IMG/VR virus record: IMGVR_UViG_3300022752_000071
Coordinates: 1 to 61,365 of that record
Length of the DNA stretch: 61,365 nt
Strand: one strand, 5' to 3'
Source: a virus
Taxonomy: Duplodnaviria > Caudoviricetes
Positions 1,269 to 50,778 of the stretch are shown here, piece after piece. The stretch's first letter is position 1; every line of letters begins with the position of its first letter. Position numbers and translations under genes: made by a program. A model generated the notes under the pieces. That model had not been told where the DNA came from, did not search any database, and saw only the letters and a list, made by a program, of their open reading frames with translations.

Positions 1269-3698
1269 ATGCAACCACCCCATATTTCCGTCACCGCATG
1301 GCCCGGCCTGAACGCGAAACTCCCCGGCGTTCGGCAGGACATCACGCTCGAAGAACTCATCGACGACTTGCGACAGCCGGCGCAGTACCGGGGCAAGTGG
1401 GACCATCCCGGTTGGTCGCCGGGCGTGTTCGATCCGCCGCTTCGCAAGAGCGGCAACGTCCGCGAAATGTACTTGCTCGGCCTCGATTACGACGGCGACT
1501 CGGGCGCGACCATCGACGAGGCGCTCGCGTGCTGGGAGGGCGTTCGTGGTTTCCTCTACACCACCAAGAGCCACACGCCGCAGCAGCATCGCTTCCGCGT
1601 GATGCTCCTGCTCGACCGTCCGGTTTCGGCGGTGGAATACAAGCGGCTTTGGTTGCTCGCCGATGCGATGCTGAAGGAGATTGGCCATAAGGTCGATCCG
1701 CAGGCGAAGGACGCCGCACGCTTCTGGTACGCGCCGGGCACGGACGGAGCGCCGCACGAGCTTCACGACTTCGACGGTGAGCCGCTCGCGGTAGACGAGT
1801 GGCTTGACCAAGCACCAGAACTCGCCGCCGTCGTGAGCGCCTACGACTGGGACGAAGCCGACGCGCCGCCGGAAATCGTGGCGAATGCGAAGGCGTACCT
1901 TGCGGCGATGCCGCCCGCCATCAGCGGGCAGGGCGGGCACCCGACGACGTTCCGCGCTGCCGTCGCCCTTGTTCGAGGGTTCGGCTTGTCCCGCCGACAG
2001 GCAGTGGACGTGCTGATGACGGACTACAATCCGCGCTGCTTGCCGCAGTGGACCGAAGACGAGCTTCGCCACAAGGTCGAAGACGCCCACGCCAATTCAA
2101 CGCGACCGTGGGGGTACCTTCGCTCGCGCCCTACCATTCGCCTGGGTGTCGATCTCTTCCGCGTCGTCAACGATGCGGTGGCGGCACTCGCCCAGGCGAA
2201 GACGCTGTACCAGACGACGGGCCGACTCGTCCGCGTCGTGCGGGTTGAGGAGGCGGACGAAGGCAGGACGCAGGCTACGCGCGGCACGCCGCTCATCTCG
2301 CCGCTGACGCCGATGGCGCTGCACTCGCACCTTACGGAAATCGCCCGCTGGGAGTCGTTCGACAATCGAACGCAGACGTGGGTGCCGAAAGAGCCAAGCA
2401 AGAACGCCGTGCTCGCCCTCGCCGAACTCATGGAGTGGCCGGGAGTCCCTCCGATTGCCGGAATCACCGAAGTCCCCGTCATGCGCGCCGACGGCACGGT
2501 GCTCGACAAGCCTGGCTACGACAACGCCACGGGGTATCTCTACTTGAGCCAAGGCGCGTTCGAGCCAATCCAAGAGTTCCCCTCGCAGGTCGATGCTCGC
2601 GCCGCCCTCACCGACTTGGTCGAAGTCTGGCAGGACTTCCCCTTCAAGACCGAAGCCGACAGGTTCATCCCCATTGCGGCGCTGCTCACCCTCGTCGCCC
2701 GTCCCGCCATCACCGGCAACGTGCCCTTGATTGCGTTCGATGCCCCCTTGAAGGGCACCGGCAAGACGCTCGCCATCGACAGCGTCGGTGTCATCGCGAC
2801 GGGTCGACCGAGCTACAAGATCAATTGGACCGGAAACGAGGACGAGCAGGAAAAGCAGTTGAACAGCTACGCGCGCCTCCGCACGCCGCTCGTCAACTTC
2901 GACAACGCCAACACGCCGATTCGCGGTGCGGCATTGGAGCGCGTGCTGACGAGCCGGGGGCGCGTGGCGTTGCGAGTTCTTGGTTCGTCGACCATCGAGG
3001 AGCACATCTGGAAGACGGTCATCTTCGTCTCGGGCAATCAGTTGAAGATTGCTTCCGACATGACGCGACGCACGCTTCGCTGCCGCATGGTTCCGCGGCA
3101 CGAGCGCCCAAGCGAACGGCCCCTCGACACGTTCGCGCACAACGACTTGCTTTCTTGGTGCCGACAGGAGCGCGAGCGGCTCATTGACAGCGCCCTCACC
3201 CTGCTCCGCGCCTACGTCGTCGCCGGCAAACCGCGGCAGGACATCGGCAATCGCGGAGGGTTCGAGGAATGGATCGAACTCATCGCAGGGGCCATCAAGT
3301 GGGCGGGCGGTCCCGACATTCTCACTTGCTGGGACCACGAGGACGATGACGACGAGCAGCGACAGGCGCATGTCGCGTTGCTCGAATGGTGGAAAGAACG
3401 CTGGCCGGACGGCACCACGTCGAAGGAGGCCCTTGCCGACTTGCAGTCTCCGTCTACGTCTCTCGGAGGACAGGCTCGCCGAGCCGAGGTGCTTGATGCT
3501 GTTCGAGTTCTTTGCGGCCTCACGGACGTGAAGAGCCTTTCGGCAAGGGAACTCGGCTTCGCGTTGCGTACGCTTCGCGAGGTCTACGTTGGCGGGAAGT
3601 TCTTCGATTCAGGCAAGAACACCAACGCCGGCAAGCTGTGGCTTGTCACTTCGCACGCAGAGCAGCAGGCAGCGCTCGCAAGCGACGCGGCCCAGTAG
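1269..3698 (+). CDS. Primase / P-loop helicase fusion (replication protein)
   Basis: N-terminal prim-pol-like region (LGLDYD, YTTKSH, RFRV), PriCT-like helical region, Walker A APLKGTGKT; ATG at 1269 preferred. Confidence 0.8.
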   Translation: MQPPHISVTAWPGLNAKLPGVRQDITLEELIDDLRQPAQYRGKWDHPGWSPGVFDPPLRKSGNVREMYLLGLDYDGDSGATIDEALACWEGVRGFLYTTKSHTPQQHRFRVMLLLDRPVSAVEYKRLWLLADAMLKEIGHKVDPQAKDAARFWYAPGTDGAPHELHDFDGEPLAVDEWLDQAPELAAVVSAYDWDEADAPPEIVANAKAYLAAMPPAISGQGGHPTTFRAAVALVRGFGLSRRQAVDVLMTDYNPRCLPQWTEDELRHKVEDAHANSTRPWGYLRSRPTIRLGVDLFRVVNDAVAALAQAKTLYQTTGRLVRVVRVEEADEGRTQATRGTPLISPLTPMALHSHLTEIARWESFDNRTQTWVPKEPSKNAVLALAELMEWPGVPPIAGITEVPVMRADGTVLDKPGYDNATGYLYLSQGAFEPIQEFPSQVDARAALTDLVEVWQDFPFKTEADRFIPIAALLTLVARPAITGNVPLIAFDAPLKGTGKTLAIDSVGVIATGRPSYKINWTGNEDEQEKQLNSYARLRTPLVNFDNANTPIRGAALERVLTSRGRVALRVLGSSTIEEHIWKTVIFVSGNQLKIASDMTRRTLRCRMVPRHERPSERPLDTFAHNDLLSWCRQERERLIDSALTLLRAYVVAGKPRQDIGNRGGFEEWIELIAGAIKWAGGPDILTCWDHEDDDDEQRQAHVALLEWWKERWPDGTTSKEALADLQSPSTSLGGQARRAEVLDAVRVLCGLTDVKSLSARELGFALRTLREVYVGGKFFDSGKNTNAGKLWLVTSHAEQQAALASDAAQ

Positions 3699-3728
3699 CA
3701 GCGAGGGGCACAGCGAGGGACACAGCGA

Positions 3729-3761
3729 GGGGATACTGAAGATTCTTTCTTCGGTATCCCC
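3729..3761 (+). terminator. Hairpin after primase gene
   Basis: ggggatactgaaga / tcttcggtatcccc 14-bp stem, preceded by 3 x cagcgaggg. Confidence 0.5.
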
Positions 3762-3764
3762 ACT

Positions 3765-3946
3765 CACAACCTGACCGGCCGTCCGCGCTTTTCCTTGAGA
3801 CGGCCCGCTGCCCGACGAACTTGCAACCCAACCGCCCACCGCAAAATCGAAGATTGGTTTTCCCGCCCGACGCCAGCACAACCTAACCGGCTGCCGCGCA
3901 CAACCTAACCGGCTTTCGCCCCGACGTTCTCACAACCTGATCGGCT
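3765..3946. repeat. Iteron-like repeats CACAACCTRAYCGGC
   Basis: Copies at 3765, 3877, 3899, 3931. Confidence 0.8.
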
Positions 3947-4132
3947 TCCGCGAACTCTCTCGAAGGCTCATATAGGTAATTACGAATTGCGAATTGCGAA
4001 TTACCGAGCGCCTCACCCTTCATCCCTCACCGCCCTACCATCAAGCCAATCGCGCTTAGGCTGACGCCTTAAGTCAGGCCGTCGTGCTATTAATTTGGGC
4101 CGCCTTTCGCGCCGCCCCCGGTCGCCGCGCGT

Positions 4133-4340
4133 GCGTCGGTCGCCGCGCGCGCGTGTGGGTGCGTGTGGGTGCGCGTGCGTGCGCGAGGGCGGACTACGCC
4201 GCGCGCGCGTCGGTCGCCGCGCGCGCGTGTGGGTGCGTGTGGGTGCGCGTGCGTGCGCGAGGGCGGACTACGCCGCGAGGGGGAGCCGAGGACGAGCCGA
4301 GGACGAGCCGAGGACGAGCCGAGGGCGGACTACGCCGCGA
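4133..4340. repeat. 74-bp tandem duplication, (gagccgaggac)n and 3 x GGCG-gacta-CGCC hairpin
   Basis: Units start at 4133 and 4207; long alternating purine/pyrimidine runs. Confidence 0.85.
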
Positions 4341-4677
4341 GGGGGAGGGGGAGGGGGAGCATGTGGACGGACGCCACGTCCAGGCGCTCGGAGGACGTCG
4401 CCAGCGCGCGGAGGGACGCGCGGTGGAGCGTCTCGATCTCCGCGTCCGCGTCGACCGAGGCGACGCTCGCCATAGCCTCACCCCAGGCCATCGCGACCGC
4501 GACCGGGTCGATCAGTTCAACATCCGAGACGTCGAGGACGATTACCGCGTCGACGTCCGCGGGGACATCGGGCAGCGCGACCGAGCCCATTGCGAGCACC
4601 GCGAGGGTAGCGGCGACGAAGGACCAGCTAGCGCAGATCGGCAGGGCGAGCAAAGCGACGAAGATGGCGAGAGTCAT
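4330..4677 (-). CDS. Hypothetical membrane protein
   Basis: Hydrophobic N-terminus; GGAG RBS and promoter upstream. Confidence 0.6.
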   Translation of the reverse strand: MTLAIFVALLALPICASWSFVAATLAVLAMGSVALPDVPADVDAVIVLDVSDVELIDPVAVAMAWGEAMASVASVDADAEIETLHRASLRALATSSERLDVASVHMLPLPLPLAA

Positions 4678-4716
4678 GGTGGGGGGTCTCCGTTGGGGGG
4701 TGTCGAGGACAAGAGG

Positions 4717-4745
4717 ACGTTACACACTAGCGTGTCGAAACGCAA
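4717..4745 (-). promoter_or_regulatory. Sigma70-like promoter
   Basis: TTGCGT-N17-TAACGT. Confidence 0.5.
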
Positions 4746-4812
4746 GTATTAATTCCCTCCCCTTTGTCGATTTTCGCGAATCGCGGCAAATTGCGGGCGA
4801 TCCGCGAGCCAC

Positions 4813-4851
4813 AAAATGAAACGACCCCCGATCGAGGGGCCGATCGGGGGT
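4813..4851 (-). terminator. Intrinsic terminator
   Basis: 11-bp stem acccccgatcg / cgatcgggggt followed by a T-rich run on the minus strand. Confidence 0.7.
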
Positions 4852-4879
4852 TAGTAGCGGGAGGGGAGGGGAGGCTAGG

Positions 4880-5635
4880 TCATCCCCTCACTGGCATCAC
4901 GAGCGCGAGCGCGTCCGTGCCGTCTCGTCCCTCGATGTCGTACCGCATGGGGGCAAGGTAGGCCCATTCGCCTTGATCCTTCGCCGCCCCCCACGAGCGA
5001 TCGGGACGCCATTCGGCGTCTGCGATCGAGGCGCGGACGCTGGTCGCGCCGACGGCGTCCGCGACGTCCGCGAGCCGGGCGAGGTAGTGTGGATCGGCAT
5101 ACCAGATCGCGCTACCAGTAGCAGCGCCCGCGTCCGGCGTCGTCCCGTGCGTGCGTCGCGCGGGAATGACTTGGTCGACGGGGGGGTACTGCATCCCGCC
5201 ATCGATCACGACTTGCGACGTTGTCGAGGGGGAGCCGAGCATCGGGTCTCCCTCCCCCTTGCGTCCGGCGTGGGGGACGGTCGCGACGTCCGCGTGGAGG
5301 ATGGGTGAACCTTCGACTTGCGAGCCGATCGCGATCGCGATCGACTCGCGGGCACCGCATGCCTTGACCGCGCGCATCATGGTCGATCGGGGGATGACCG
5401 CGTATCCCTGGGGGGAGTAAGCGGGGATCGGCGTCGACCCACCCGTCCGCCCGCGGAGGAGGAGCAGGGTATGTCCGTCCGTCGCGATCGCCTCCGGGCG
5501 TCCGTCGACATAGCGCAGGCACACCGAGCACAGCGCGGTGCGCGTCTCGTCGGTCGACGCAAAGGCTAGCAGGGCCTTCGCTTCGGCTTTTGAGAAAGTG
5601 AGGTAAACGCGGGAATCGTGGCTGTAGGTCTGCAT
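4880..5635 (-). CDS. Truncated beta-sliding-clamp (DnaN)-like protein
   Basis: FASTDETR..L, IATDGH, VIPR, YPPVDQVIP, DPHYL resemble DnaN middle and C-terminal motifs. Confidence 0.65.
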   Translation of the reverse strand: MQTYSHDSRVYLTFSKAEAKALLAFASTDETRTALCSVCLRYVDGRPEAIATDGHTLLLLRGRTGGSTPIPAYSPQGYAVIPRSTMMRAVKACGARESIAIAIGSQVEGSPILHADVATVPHAGRKGEGDPMLGSPSTTSQVVIDGGMQYPPVDQVIPARRTHGTTPDAGAATGSAIWYADPHYLARLADVADAVGATSVRASIADAEWRPDRSWGAAKDQGEWAYLAPMRYDIEGRDGTDALALVMPVRG

Positions 5636-47773: not shown

Positions 47774-49540
47774 TTACCGGACGAGCGAACCGATGCGCGC
47801 TTCCGCAATCGCGATATATTCCGCCGATTGCTCAAAACCGACGAACTCAAAGCCTTCCAGCATGCACGCCATGCCGGTCGTCCCGCTGCCGGTGAACGGA
47901 TCGAGCACGCAACCGTTCGGCGGTGTCACGAGTTTCACAAGCCAGCGCATGAGTTCGACGGGCTTCACGGTGGGGTGGCTGTTGCGAACGGCGGCAGCGG
48001 TGCGGCCGGCACCAGCACGAGGTGAGTTCAGACCGTCCGATCCTTCCTCGCGGTCAACCGCTTGCGCGCCGGTCTTCGTGGGAAGACTCTCGCAGCCGCG
48101 TTCGCGTTCCTTGCGGCCCGCCTTGGCTTCGTACTTGAAGCACGGAAAGAAGCGGGAGGCTCCGTCCTTGTCGCCTTGCCGATCCATTTCGGGGACCGGG
48201 CAGTCCTCCGCGCACTCGTCGCCGCACTCGGGTGAATGATTCAGAAGGATGTTCGGTGGCCAACGACCGATGGTGCTGGCGTCGTTCGCGCCAGAGAGAT
48301 CGCTGGAGTTCTTCCAGCTATTCTCCATCGATCCGCCGCGCGCTTTGATCGCTTGCACGCCTGCCGCTAGCTTGGCGAAGTCCGACTCGGAAGCGTAGGC
48401 GACGCGCGTGCCGTCGATGTTCAGCGCCCCGGTGCCGTGCGCGAGCACGTTCTCCGAGACGGTGCCGTCGAGCGGCTTGCGCGCCACTACAATGGGCTTA
48501 TGGCCTCTGTCTTCCTCGCCCTGGCAACTTTCCAGCGATGCGCCGGTAGCACTCTCGGTTGCAGCAAGCGTTTGGATTGCGCGCAGCCTGAGCGCGCTGG
48601 CGCGAAACAGATCGTCCGCAAGCCGCACAAGGAACGAAAATGCGGGCGCGTTCGGGCGCGTGCTCCCGTCCGTGATCTTCGACAGACAAGACAGCAAGAT
48701 TGCAGAGTCGGTTGTCTGATTTGTCTCCGTTGATGTGGTGGACGTGCTCTCTCGTGCCGAGGCTTCTTCCCAGGTGCGCTGCCATGACGACACGGTGTTC
48801 AAGCTCAAATCGATTGCCGACGCGGACTGCCACGTATCCGTCTCCGCGCACGAATCGCCCCGTGTAGCAAACCGCCGCCCTGCATCCAGCAGAGCAGAAG
48901 CGAACGCCTCTACGAACTCGTTTTGGCTTGACGCTGAATGTTCCTCCGCAAGCCTCGCACGTAACATTGACAGGCATGAACCCATTGTAGCTGGTTTTGC
49001 GGCCACAATCACCGGCTCAAATGCTGGTTTCAGCGCCGTGCCCCATCCTTGCCATTGCTTCGCGGCGTCGGTAGCGGGTGCGGTAATCCCTCGTGTGTCC
49101 AAAACTGTTCTTGGGAGATCGCCGGGAGACATCGCTCGCGCGTGCTTGTTGGCGCGTGCCGCATACGGAGACAGGCCGATCACTTCCCGCTCTTTTCCCG
49201 CCGCCTTGTCGATCGCTTTGGACACGTCCATCGACTTCGGGAAGCCCGACCCGTAGATCCAATGGATCGAATCGCGCACTTCAAAGCCCGCGTCCTCGAT
49301 GGCGCACGCCATCCGGTGATAGGTGCGCGTGCCGCCGAACGCGAGGAGATGCCCGCCCGGCTTCAGCACGCGCAGGCACTCCCTCCAGACGTCTACGTTG
49401 TAAGCAATTCCAGAGGCGTCCCACCGCTTGCCCATGAATCCCAATTCGTATGGCGGGTCGGTGACGATGGCGTCGATGCACTCGTCGGGCAGATCGCGTA
49501 GGAGTTCTCGGCAGTCGCCCTGGAAAAGCTCGTAGGTCAC
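47774..49540 (-). CDS. N6/N4 DNA methyltransferase (beta class) with 173-aa insertion
   Basis: TDPPY, RVLKPGG, W.YGSGFPK, HPTVKP, LDPFTGSGTT. Confidence 0.92.
   Translation of the reverse strand: MTYELFQGDCRELLRDLPDECIDAIVTDPPYELGFMGKRWDASGIAYNVDVWRECLRVLKPGGHLLAFGGTRTYHRMACAIEDAGFEVRDSIHWIYGSGFPKSMDVSKAIDKAAGKEREVIGLSPYAARANKHARAMSPGDLPRTVLDTRGITAPATDAAKQWQGWGTALKPAFEPVIVAAKPATMGSCLSMLRARLAEEHSASSQNEFVEAFASALLDAGRRFATRGDSCAETDTWQSASAIDLSLNTVSSWQRTWEEASARESTSTTSTETNQTTDSAILLSCLSKITDGSTRPNAPAFSFLVRLADDLFRASALRLRAIQTLAATESATGASLESCQGEEDRGHKPIVVARKPLDGTVSENVLAHGTGALNIDGTRVAYASESDFAKLAAGVQAIKARGGSMENSWKNSSDLSGANDASTIGRWPPNILLNHSPECGDECAEDCPVPEMDRQGDKDGASRFFPCFKYEAKAGRKERERGCESLPTKTGAQAVDREEGSDGLNSPRAGAGRTAAAVRNSHPTVKPVELMRWLVKLVTPPNGCVLDPFTGSGTTGMACMLEGFEFVGFEQSAEYIAIAEARIGSLVR
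48498..48977 (-). mobile_element. HNH homing endonuclease gene nested out of frame in the MTase
   Basis: GY, EHR.VM..HLGR.L...E.VHHING.K.DNRL.NL, flanking CxxC pairs; 10-bp inverted repeat at both ends. Confidence 0.88.
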
Positions 49541-50778
49541 TTTCGCACCGTCATGCTCGCTTCTTGGAAGAACTCCACGCCGGGGATGGGCGTCGGTGCG
49601 CCGTCGTCGCGCACGCTGCCGCGCATCTCCGCGTCGATCTTGTTCGGATCGGGCGAGCAGAATCGCGCAGGCACCGCCGACTCGTCAACAATTCGGAACT
49701 TCCAGACCATCCGCATCGACACGCCCTGCGGCATCGCGGTGGGCGTGGGAGCCGCAGCCAGGGCTGCGGTCGCTTCTTGGGCCGTCTGGGCCGCAGCAGC
49801 GAGCGCGAGCGCCTCGCGCGAGGCTTTCTCGCGCTCGGTCACGTAGAGCGCCACCTTTGCCTTCAGCTTCTTCTCGGCGTTCTCCAACGCGTCGAGCGCG
49901 GGTTTGAACCAGCCGTTGATCGTCTTGACGGTCGTGTTCAGCGGGCCGGTGACTTCCTTGCGCCGGTCGTCGAGTTCCTTGTGCTTCGCCTTCACCTCGC
50001 GAATGAGGTCGGCGGCGAAGGCAGAGTCCTCGTCGTTCGAGACAACGAACGTGTCGAGTTCACGCAGCGCCGCGACGGTGGCGGCGTGCTCGCCGTCGAG
50101 GTCGCCGGCTTGTTTACGGTACGGGGTCAGGTCGTTCATGGGGTCTTCGATCCTTTCTTGTTTCTTCCACGTCATAGCGGCGCTGCCGGATTGCCAGCGT
50201 TTTCCGGTAGCCACTTGCCGCCATCCATTTTTCCGCATGTACTCAGCGGCATCGCCTCGTCGACAAATCCAATTCTCCCATCGTTGCAACGTCGTCGGCG
50301 GCGCTGCGATCAGTTCGCGACGATTCGTTTTGCCTGCTGAGTAGATTGATGCGCGCGAACCGTCCGGCAGCAATCGGACAACGGCACGGCGGCGAACGGT
50401 CGCCGTCCAACCGGAGCATCGGTAAACATAGCCAGTGTGCCCTTGGCCTTCGTCGCTGAACGTCACAAGGACCGGCCAGCGTGTGCGGTCGATTTCGTGT
50501 TTCATCTGCCGCATAAGGGGCTTCGACACATGCTTCAATCGGCGTTCATGTTTCGGAACAGCGACCATTCGGGACAAGGCAAGAACGCCCCCTGGTGCTT
50601 CTGGACACACAGATTTCGCGCAGCCGGGGGGGGGAGGTTGCCATGCGTATGCTGCGACAGGGCGTTCGTTTTCGTAGACCGCAAAACAATAAACGGCGAC
50701 TCGGCCCGCCGAAGCGTAGCCATGGTGTCGCTCACACAACTCGCGCACCACTTCGATTGAAACTCGTCGCAAATCCAC
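49537..50778 (-). CDS. Mom-like adenine-modification protein fused in frame to a coiled-coil phage protein (internal ATG at 50139)
   Basis: HHGY, LSRM, LVTFSDEGQGHTGYVY.CSGW; C-terminal RK..T.PLN...K.IN.WFKP. Confidence 0.75.
   Translation of the reverse strand: MDLRRVSIEVVRELCERHHGYASAGRVAVYCFAVYENERPVAAYAWQPPPPGCAKSVCPEAPGGVLALSRMVAVPKHERRLKHVSKPLMRQMKHEIDRTRWPVLVTFSDEGQGHTGYVYRCSGWTATVRRRAVVRLLPDGSRASIYSAGKTNRRELIAAPPTTLQRWENWICRRGDAAEYMRKNGWRQVATGKRWQSGSAAMTWKKQERIEDPMNDLTPYRKQAGDLDGEHAATVAALRELDTFVVSNDEDSAFAADLIREVKAKHKELDDRRKEVTGPLNTTVKTINGWFKPALDALENAEKKLKAKVALYVTEREKASREALALAAAAQTAQEATAALAAAPTPTAMPQGVSMRMVWKFRIVDESAVPARFCSPDPNKIDAEMRGSVRDDGAPTPIPGVEFFQEASMTVRK

Follow-up and report, generated by a model that had tools for sequence, protein, structure and literature searches.

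Homing endonuclease genes were considered able to persist in essential or useful genes in three ways alone, as introns, as inteins, or by splitting their host gene. Free-standing homing endonuclease genes split host genes, as mobE does in nrdA of Aeromonas phage Aeh1. The bypass element of T4 gene 60 is linked with the homing endonuclease mobA; in it, a stop follows the take-off codon, a take-off hairpin is present and the gap measures 50 nucleotides (nt). Here, we describe an HNH endonuclease gene that lies out of frame within an uninterrupted DNA methylase gene of a linear IMG/VR virus record of 61,365 base pairs (bp), with a CheckV completeness of 81; this whole stretch is referred to as the window. 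Judged by sequence comparison, the window element is a member of the published ShiLan-type family of hidden HNH genes and not a new mechanism.

The 'ShiLan domain' is a region of 202 amino acids (aa) in mycobacteriophage methylases, with a hidden HNH gene in the third frame (Gosselin et al. 2023, PMC9957025; Arsenault, Gosselin and Gogarten 2025, PMC11855218). In the parts of PMC11855218 that describe the domain, the host frame is free of stops, the opening 11 residues repeat those just past the insertion site, no intron or intein signature is reported, with RNAweasel finding no intron, a loop is predicted, and the distribution is patchy. Close relatives of ShiLan that lack the methylase altogether are also mentioned there. 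The same parts suggest leaderless initiation of the hidden HNH, with a GTG 18 bp into the insert as the proposed start, and present work on ten mycobacteriophages together with structure prediction. A search of the full-text literature found the term 'ShiLan domain' only in PMC9957025 and PMC11855218.

A hidden HNH gene in an open methylase gene

The locus is made up of two overlapping open reading frames (ORFs), the insert and two copies of a host motif:

47774..49540, minus strand: complete ORF of an N6/N4 DNA methyltransferase, 588 aa, open through the insert; PF01555 match with E 2.5e-33, in two stretches
48498..48977, minus strand: intact HNH ORF, 159 aa; PF13392 (HNH_3) match with E 2.7e-10, and matches to 12 HNH-annotated PHROGs
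48503..49021, minus strand: ShiLan-type insert, 519 nt, methylase residues 174-346; absent from P0005, P0010 and P0016
48992..49021, minus strand: 5' degenerate copy of the host strand motif (FEPVIVAAKP), predicted coil
48473..48502, minus strand: 3' host copy of the motif (HKPIVVARKP), predicted core beta-strand

The HNH gene is read in the third frame, such that a methylase codon corresponds to positions 2 and 3 of one HNH codon followed by position 1 of the next. This offset was identical in 12/12 loci first examined. The predicted endonuclease has an N-terminal zinc finger (CxxC...C...C), an HH-N-DNR-N-H core and a C-terminal CxxC...CC..C arrangement, and in an alignment of homologues residues C7, C10, C28, C32, H80, H81, N83, D88, N89, R90, N93, H102 and H106 were invariant. 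Its TAA stop is formed from the His and Lys codons of the host (CAT AAG).

The borders of the insert were set, between ...ALKPA and HKPIVVARKPL, by alignment to P0005, the closest insert-free relative (416 aa, 82% identical). P0005 reads ...GWGTALKPA followed by HEPIVVARKPLIG, and the window reads ...GWGTALKPA, then the insert (FEPVIVAAKPATMGS...EEDRG), then HKPIVVARKPLDG. Because P0005 continues directly after GWGTALKPA, we assign residues 174-346 (173 codons, 519 nt) to the insert, with borders that may move by a few nt owing to the duplicated motif. The insert has a GC (guanine plus cytosine) content of 0.57-0.60 as compared with about 0.62-0.65 for the flanks, is rich in Ser, Thr and Ala when read in the methylase frame, and contains only 39 nt outside the HNH ORF. 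In the alignment its columns are shared with the inserts of ShiLan, MISSy and Mantra, and are a gap in Eureka, Clown, Rhynn, P0005, P0010 and P0016.

A sequence-only reading of this stretch had proposed a complete 159-aa HNH gene in another frame of an unbroken methylase ORF, an insert of about 519 nt (173 codons) and a host motif on both sides. The ORFs with their PF01555 and PF13392 matches, the alignment to insert-free P0005, and the sequences FEPVIVAAKP before and HKPIVVARKP after the insert, respectively, bear these out. A claim of novelty for the element does not stand, as the type is already in print in the published descriptions cited above (PMC9957025, 2023; PMC11855218, 2025).

With ShiLan, the window element shares the host family (PF01555), the insertion point (ALKP/xEPxVVARKP) and a homologous HNH gene in the third frame. 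The two HNH proteins are 48.8% identical over 97% of the length (E 5e-27), and the identity of the window HNH to the Cr-LKS3 copy is 57.9%. A stop-free host frame, a duplicated motif of about 11 residues and a predicted loop are also common to both, and intron and intein signatures are absent from both. The window element is shorter, however, with 173 codons as against 202 and an HNH protein of 159 aa as against the published 195 aa, and it comes from an uncultured freshwater virus rather than from an actinophage. Moreover, the window HNH begins with an ATG that immediately follows the 5' motif copy and has no good Shine-Dalgarno sequence before it, and the window has a perfect 10-bp terminal inverted repeat, whereas the ShiLan-group copies match at only 7-8 of 9 positions.

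Metagenome contigs from runs of another study covered the insert at an identity of at least 99% and bridged both junctions, which rules out an assembly artefact. Freshwater and lake metagenomes from three studies contain at least 90% of the sampled words of the window; some of them may be its own source. In one contig of 545 nt (run X2), positions 48484 and 49029 are linked by 25 different letters where the window has 544, a shortening by 519. Its identity is about 82-86% and the shorter of its sides spans 27 letters; it is weak evidence, and probably an insert-free homologue from another organism.

The host frame is kept free of stops

Twenty-two of the 23 loci that have the N end of the methylase, the HNH and the C start are stop-free between the methylase halves, and the 22 amount to 15 distinct lineages once near-identical mycobacteriophage copies are merged. 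The sole exception is L182, in which the methylase stops just past the 5' motif copy and the HNH stands alone. Related insertions are thus mostly free of host-frame stops, and the methylase motifs are kept. We also counted stops in HNH segments of at least 300 nt. The +1 frame was open in 29/32 segments associated with a methylase (the others being one in L119 and two in L182), and the +2 frame of such segments had a mean of 6.2 stops. For HNH homologues in other contexts, the +1 frame was open in 10/119, with a mean of 3.96 stops. Loci with a GC content of 0.39-0.47 (L184, L183, L012 and L179) have an open +1 frame despite 11-16 stops in the +2 frame.

When the HNH protein was held fixed and its codons were redrawn from the usage of the flanking methylase, the host frame of the window was open in 1.56% of the 5000 draws, which averaged 3.24 stops; the resampled probability of an open frame was 0-0.14 in 15 lineages and 0.0156 for the window. 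Openness is thus more than chance would give under the codon usage of the flanks. Shuffling the HNH's own codons left the frame open in 42% of trials, and because this compares with 1.6% under the codon usage of the flanks, the choice of codons in the HNH gene has been reshaped. Chance openness due to GC content is ruled out by the comparison with HNH genes in other contexts together with the synonymous resampling. By these two comparisons, the stop-free host frame is kept by selection and not by GC content.

In L181 (2507-2557), a stop interrupts the nested HNH frame (VKP*RVR) but not that of the methylase, as if the endonuclease were decaying while its host gene is still maintained.

A host motif is duplicated at the insert ends

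The first 11 or so residues of the insert resemble those after the insertion site (AFEPVIVAAKP vs GHKPIVVARKP), and a duplication of the motif was found in 27/27 insert-bearing genes compared. The identity to the insert-free consensus was 0.55 for the 5' copies and 0.70 for the 3' copies. MISSy and the insert-free Eureka, which belong to the same genus, are 94-96% identical in nucleotide sequence up to ...CTG AAA CCA; the identity breaks at the 5' motif copy, which has AT-richer codons, and resumes at about 79% past the element. From the position of this break, it is the 5' copy that is part of the element and travels with it, whereas the 3' copy is the host's own. The two copies were more alike within a gene (0.58) than between genes (0.47), and 0/5000 permutations reached the observed value, a count that is not a true probability since the loci are related.

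The insert as part of the methylase protein

The 588-aa protein matches phrog_67, among the phage methyltransferase PHROGs, with 2.9e-77. Its motif order is that of the beta class, with DPPY first and FxGxG near the C-terminus, and the nearest enzymes by sequence are the beta-class CcrM (6pbd), DpnA (5hek), M.PvuII (1boo) and M.RsrI (1eg2). Insert-bearing methylases keep DPPY, FxGxG and the whole C-terminal half. AlphaFold modelling of the protein, with an alignment of 115 sequences, gave a mean predicted local distance difference test (pLDDT) score of 72.7. Most 10-residue blocks of residues 1-170 and 351-588 averaged above 85, with dips to 51-77 at residues 91-100, 121-150 and in parts of 401-520. 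The score of the insert was 32-59. The 3' motif copy was modelled as a strand (350-354; mean pLDDT of residues 351-360, 96) and the 5' copy as a low-confidence coil (residues 173-183, below 50).

Between distant lineages, the peptides encoded by the insert in the methylase frame are about 0.32 identical, as compared with about 0.26 in simulations that included HNH conservation and stop avoidance. The excess had a mean z of 2.0 over 76 pairs, and 39 of these 76 non-independent pairs were above z = 2. Because the identity is only slightly above the simulated value, the similarity in the methylase frame, for example of STSTTST over HVHHIN and of SLNTVSSW over LEHRVVM, is mostly a by-product of HNH conservation. 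A folded domain in this peptide is not claimed, the excess at the amino-acid level being small.

No sign of protein splicing was found in the window insert, either by Pfam or in the junction residues. Pfam on the 588-aa protein gave only N6_N4_Mtase and a sub-threshold Methyltransf_11, with no Hint domain, and the insert starts with Phe, ends with Gly and has His at +1, none of them intein-type splice residues. Like inteins with homing endonucleases, the window insert sits in frame at a conserved site of a phage gene, would be co-translated, and is mobile and patchily distributed; a true intein occurs in this methylase family too, at YG/C...GN/S. It differs from inteins in that it has no Hint-type blocks and no Cys, Ser or Thr at +1, and in that its endonuclease is in another frame.

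Directly upstream of the methylase, and overlapping its start by 4 nt (GTGA), is a gene (49537-50778, minus strand) with an N-terminal match to the Mom-like DNA-modification family phrog_1384 (4.3e-10) and a match to the exonuclease-annotated phrog_10477 (4.3e-20). Next to this gene, the methylase is thus part of a DNA-modification module.

Distribution of the nested arrangement

An insert of 166-195 residues is present at the insertion site in 15/115 aligned homologues and absent from 100, with no intermediate lengths. Metagenome loci with a methylase were insert-free in 79/80 cases, the remaining one being incomplete, and none of the 80 had an insert at the ShiLan site in this one scan. On these counts presence among close methylase homologues is patchy, which is consistent with mobility. 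The sequence-only reading had pointed to phage genomes as a place for further nested out-of-frame HNH genes, and the same architecture does occur more widely: a scan with the HNH alignment found it, beyond mycobacteriophages, in Cylindrospermopsis phage Cr-LKS3, in a contig of the Kribbella qitaiheensis genome (L095), in contigs of metagenome-assembled genomes (MAGs; L096 and L097) and in the IMG/VR contigs L012, L175-L181 and L183. The loci with this architecture range in GC content from 0.39 to 0.70. In L184, L185, L187 and L188 only the C-terminal methylase flank was detected beside the HNH. Protein searches added P0002-P0004, P0007, P0008, P0017, P0019, P0035 and others; a word-indexed protein search with the insert region returned 4 proteins, a number that reflects the limit of its sensitivity and not rarity. 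Across lineages the HNH copies are 42-64% identical, and because the identity is this low, the insertions are judged to be old.

Several loci depart from the common layout. In L012 (1836-3818; IMG/VR, GC 0.46), an open 660-aa methylase holds two nested out-of-frame HNH genes, at 2429-2821 and 2903-3307. The two share the frame offset; the first is at the ShiLan site and the second after ...ALNIDVSRV, and each has 0 stops in the +1 frame, with 11 and 6, respectively, in the +2 frame. L309 (592-2727; metagenome, GC 0.39) encodes a 712-aa methylase that has no insert at the ShiLan site and has extra segments near its C-terminus. One of these segments overlies a 157-codon HNH-like frame (2076-2546) with the same offset, and the methylase frame is open. 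In L095 (1770-4283), the distance from the N end to the C start of the methylase is 1245 nt, about twice the usual, with an open frame; the sequence departs from the family after ...FEPIVVGRKPLAS, probably as the result of a second insertion that follows the HNH element.

On a 289-kb viral contig (L182:414-5043), the N-half of a methylase ends right past the 5' copy and is followed by a free-standing HNH gene (2300-3004). This N-half carries an intein-like insert and, overlapping the insert in a different frame, an HNH-like ORF of 351 aa (859-1914). The contig also encodes a second, complete methylase (3310-5043), with motif copies only 8 residues apart (SYEPIIVCRKQKGETMHKSHLIYIGRKPL) and no HNH between them, which may be a deletion scar. 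L197 (1099-2989) has an insert-free methylase and, about 270 nt downstream, a free-standing HNH gene 35% identical to that of the window; it may be a free-standing relative or a precursor arrangement.

The methylase family hosts two other elements, in Mantra and Totinger (L087 and L094, about 650-1100), L090, L002 and P0004. One is an in-frame LAGLIDADG domain without intein blocks, after FMxKxWD, and the other is a classical intein at YG/C...GN/SGFPKS. Both are already covered in the published accounts of these methylases (PMC9957025, PMC11855218).

The terminal inverted repeat

The HNH gene of the window is enclosed by two complementary arms:

48990-48981, minus strand: left arm of the inverted repeat (mRNA sense, CTACAATGGG), separated by 3 nt from the HNH ATG downstream of it
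48496-48487, minus strand: right arm of the inverted repeat, CCCATTGTAG, beginning 1 nt past the HNH stop

The sequence-only reading had reported this repeat as perfect over 10 bp, placed its arms 3 nt before the start and 1 nt after the stop of the HNH gene, and extended the pairing with bulges; arms, positions and bulged extension were all recovered. The left arm, CTACAATGGG, occupies the position expected of a ribosome-binding site, and the right arm, CCCATTGTAG, is formed by the Pro-Ile-Val-Val codons of the host's own motif copy. In RNAduplex the window duplex had an energy of -54.9 kcal/mol vs -32.8 kcal/mol for shuffles, with 0/300 shuffles reaching it (z = -5.0), and the 9/9 Watson-Crick helix had p = 0.005 against random segments of the locus. 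The repeat closes the insert in both the minimum free energy (MFE) and centroid folds of the window. The fold of the whole insert was not more stable than that of shuffles (z = 0.38).

The comparison across relatives covered lineages outside the small clade of the window, to which its closest insert-bearing relatives (P0007, P0008 and P0017) belong. Among 17 lineages, RNAduplex gave z values at or below -2.5 against shuffles only for the window and L187 (-2.7). In the 9-mer helix test, run on 16 lineages (L187 left out), only the window was significant, and 15/16 had p = 0.15-1.0. Partial complementarity between GATAGGYTC and GAGCCNATC (Glu-Pro-Ile codons), over 7-8 of 9 positions, was seen in L001, L087, L095 and L178, with no compensatory change in this pairing and no covariation between the third motif base and the base opposite. 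The flanking repeat with covariation that had been envisaged was thus not found in these 16 lineages, and we reject a terminal stem conserved across them. A search of Rfam 15 (E <= 10) with 48200-49300, both strands, returned no intron, ribozyme or other RNA family, the sole match being a weak one to an sRNA on the opposite strand (E = 1.4). The left arm lies against the HNH ATG, which has no good ribosome-binding site, and it may therefore mask or couple HNH translation locally.

Translation start of the HNH gene

A GGAG or GGAGG sequence lies 3-8 nt upstream of the HNH start in 11/18 loci. In the ShiLan group, the GTG start in print is followed by an in-frame TGA in 6/8 mycobacteriophage loci compared, and a GGAGGA-CGA-GTG start further downstream is kept in 8/8. 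Ordinary internal initiation thus seems more likely than leaderless initiation for the HNH of the ShiLan group, because the published start meets a TGA in most of these loci and the GTG preceded by GGAGGA is present in all of them. The loci of this comparison include L002 (3184-3276) and the same stretch in L001, L085, L086, L088, L089 and L090. The TGA after the published ShiLan GTG is synonymous in the methylase frame (ACC to ACT) in six phages.

Discussion

We consider it probable that the window carries a read-through, dual-coding homing element of the ShiLan type that is tolerated in the methylase gene. The element would have inserted in frame into a beta-class methylase, between ...ALKP and xEPxVVARKP, a strand that runs into the target-recognition region. 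During methylase translation, ribosomes would read straight through the 519 nt of the element, whose sequence would be constrained against stops in the methylase frame, and the product would be a methylase with an intact catalytic core and a poorly structured loop of 173 residues, presumably still active. Ribosomes that initiate internally on the same mRNA, in the third frame, would make the HNH, which would presumably cut insert-free alleles of co-infecting relatives, and repair would copy the element in. The anatomy of the locus, its homology to the published element, the selection against stops and the patchy presence among close homologues, all read from sequence, agree with this scheme. 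They also support the earlier suggestion of an HNH element of the homing type whose host gene is spared without recourse to an intron or intein, with Rfam, Pfam and the junction residues in agreement that intron core and intein ends are lacking.

Three ways of sparing the host gene had been put forward in that reading. The open frame in 22/23 loci favours the tolerated dual-coding insert, and the lack of a conserved stem and the empty Rfam search speak against the other two, ribosomal bypass and RNA excision. If the stem paired the ends of the insert and an unrecognised ribozyme or host enzymes removed the HNH segment, the message would encode a 415-aa methylase. The stem of the window is real and strong and closes the insert in the folds, and weaker partial complementarity recurs in L001, L087, L095 and L178; yet in 15/16 lineages the helix is no better than random and does not covary, the fold of the whole insert is no more stable than shuffles (z = 0.38), the HNH ORF leaves just 39 nt of the insert free, and neither Rfam nor, in the account of the ShiLan element in PMC11855218, RNAweasel detects an intron or, for Rfam, a ribozyme. 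Removal at the RNA level would also make the conserved stop-free frame needless, and we regard it as very unlikely. Stem-aided bypass, from a take-off GTG at 49006 in the 5' copy to a landing GTG at 48487 in the 3' copy, would give EPVIV-ARKPL, and appears more improbable still. The two GTG codons do occupy equivalent places in the two motif copies here, every insert-bearing gene compared has the duplication (27/27), and the gene 60 element with mobA offers a precedent. That element and the window have in common a mobile endonuclease cassette that interrupts a coding sequence without splicing, and the window has a duplicated edge codon. In the window, however, the gap is 519 nt instead of 50, the take-off codon is followed by GCC and not by a stop, and selection has preserved an open frame across the gap. 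The codons are not matched in MISSy, whose Val positions are TGC/GTT vs GTC/GTC, the stem is not conserved, and bypass would lift selection for an open frame over 166-202 codons, yet openness is what is observed. Both excision and bypass are disfavoured because a conserved stop-free frame is pointless if the insert is skipped.

That the methylase is dead or dispensable, and its frame open for another reason such as the avoidance of Rho-dependent polarity, or merely because the insertions are young, is unlikely but carries more weight than either of these. Close relatives of ShiLan lack the methylase, as mentioned in PMC11855218, ShiLan and OwlsT2W have a disrupted methylase C-terminus, and L182 keeps an HNH beside a truncated methylase. 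Against this, the insertions are old by the 42-64% identity of their HNH copies and the frame is open in 15 distinct lineages, the C-terminal half keeps the invariant catalytic motifs in insert-bearing genes, and the codon usage of the HNH has been reshaped (42% vs 1.6%). L182 is also the only locus here that resembles the mobE type. In both that type and the window, an HNH-family gene that has a start and a stop of its own is housed in a conserved phage gene, without intron or intein; they differ in that the host gene of the mobE type is made as two separately translated parts, whereas here the host frame runs through the endonuclease gene.

Several observations weigh against the dual-coding reading itself. 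The HNH start of the window lacks a good Shine-Dalgarno sequence, with only GGG 3 nt upstream, and lies inside the stem of the inverted repeat. Avoidance of polarity on downstream genes, and not methylase activity, could be what preserves the open frame, and the L182 element persists with a methylase cut short after the 5' motif copy. The 'disordered loop' is weakly based, because the insert is covered by only 15/115 rows of the alignment behind the model. In addition, read-through leaves unexplained both the unusually strong terminal stem of the window and the duplicated motif. Perhaps the duplication is not a passive relic. It is conceivable, at rather long odds, that a target-site duplication of about 30 bp is remade at each invasion, in a transposition-like spread of the HNH distinct from classical double-strand-break homing, or that the direct repeats and the stem allow the insert to be skipped precisely on occasion, at replication or translation, to give an insert-free methylase.

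Under the read-through, dual-coding interpretation, the ShiLan-type element is a further route by which a homing endonuclease gene would persist in a useful gene, the host ribosome reading through it in another frame. To the published description we add that the arrangement is widespread, occurring in a freshwater virus, a cyanophage, IMG/VR viruses with a GC content of 0.39-0.70, a Kribbella genome and MAG contigs; that two copies can share a gene (L012) and other sites in the methylase family can be occupied (L012 and L309); and that the stop-free host frame is maintained by selection and not by GC content. For annotation, hidden HNH genes should be sought within unusually long methylase ORFs. 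Several examples from outside the actinobacterial phages are now open to experiment.

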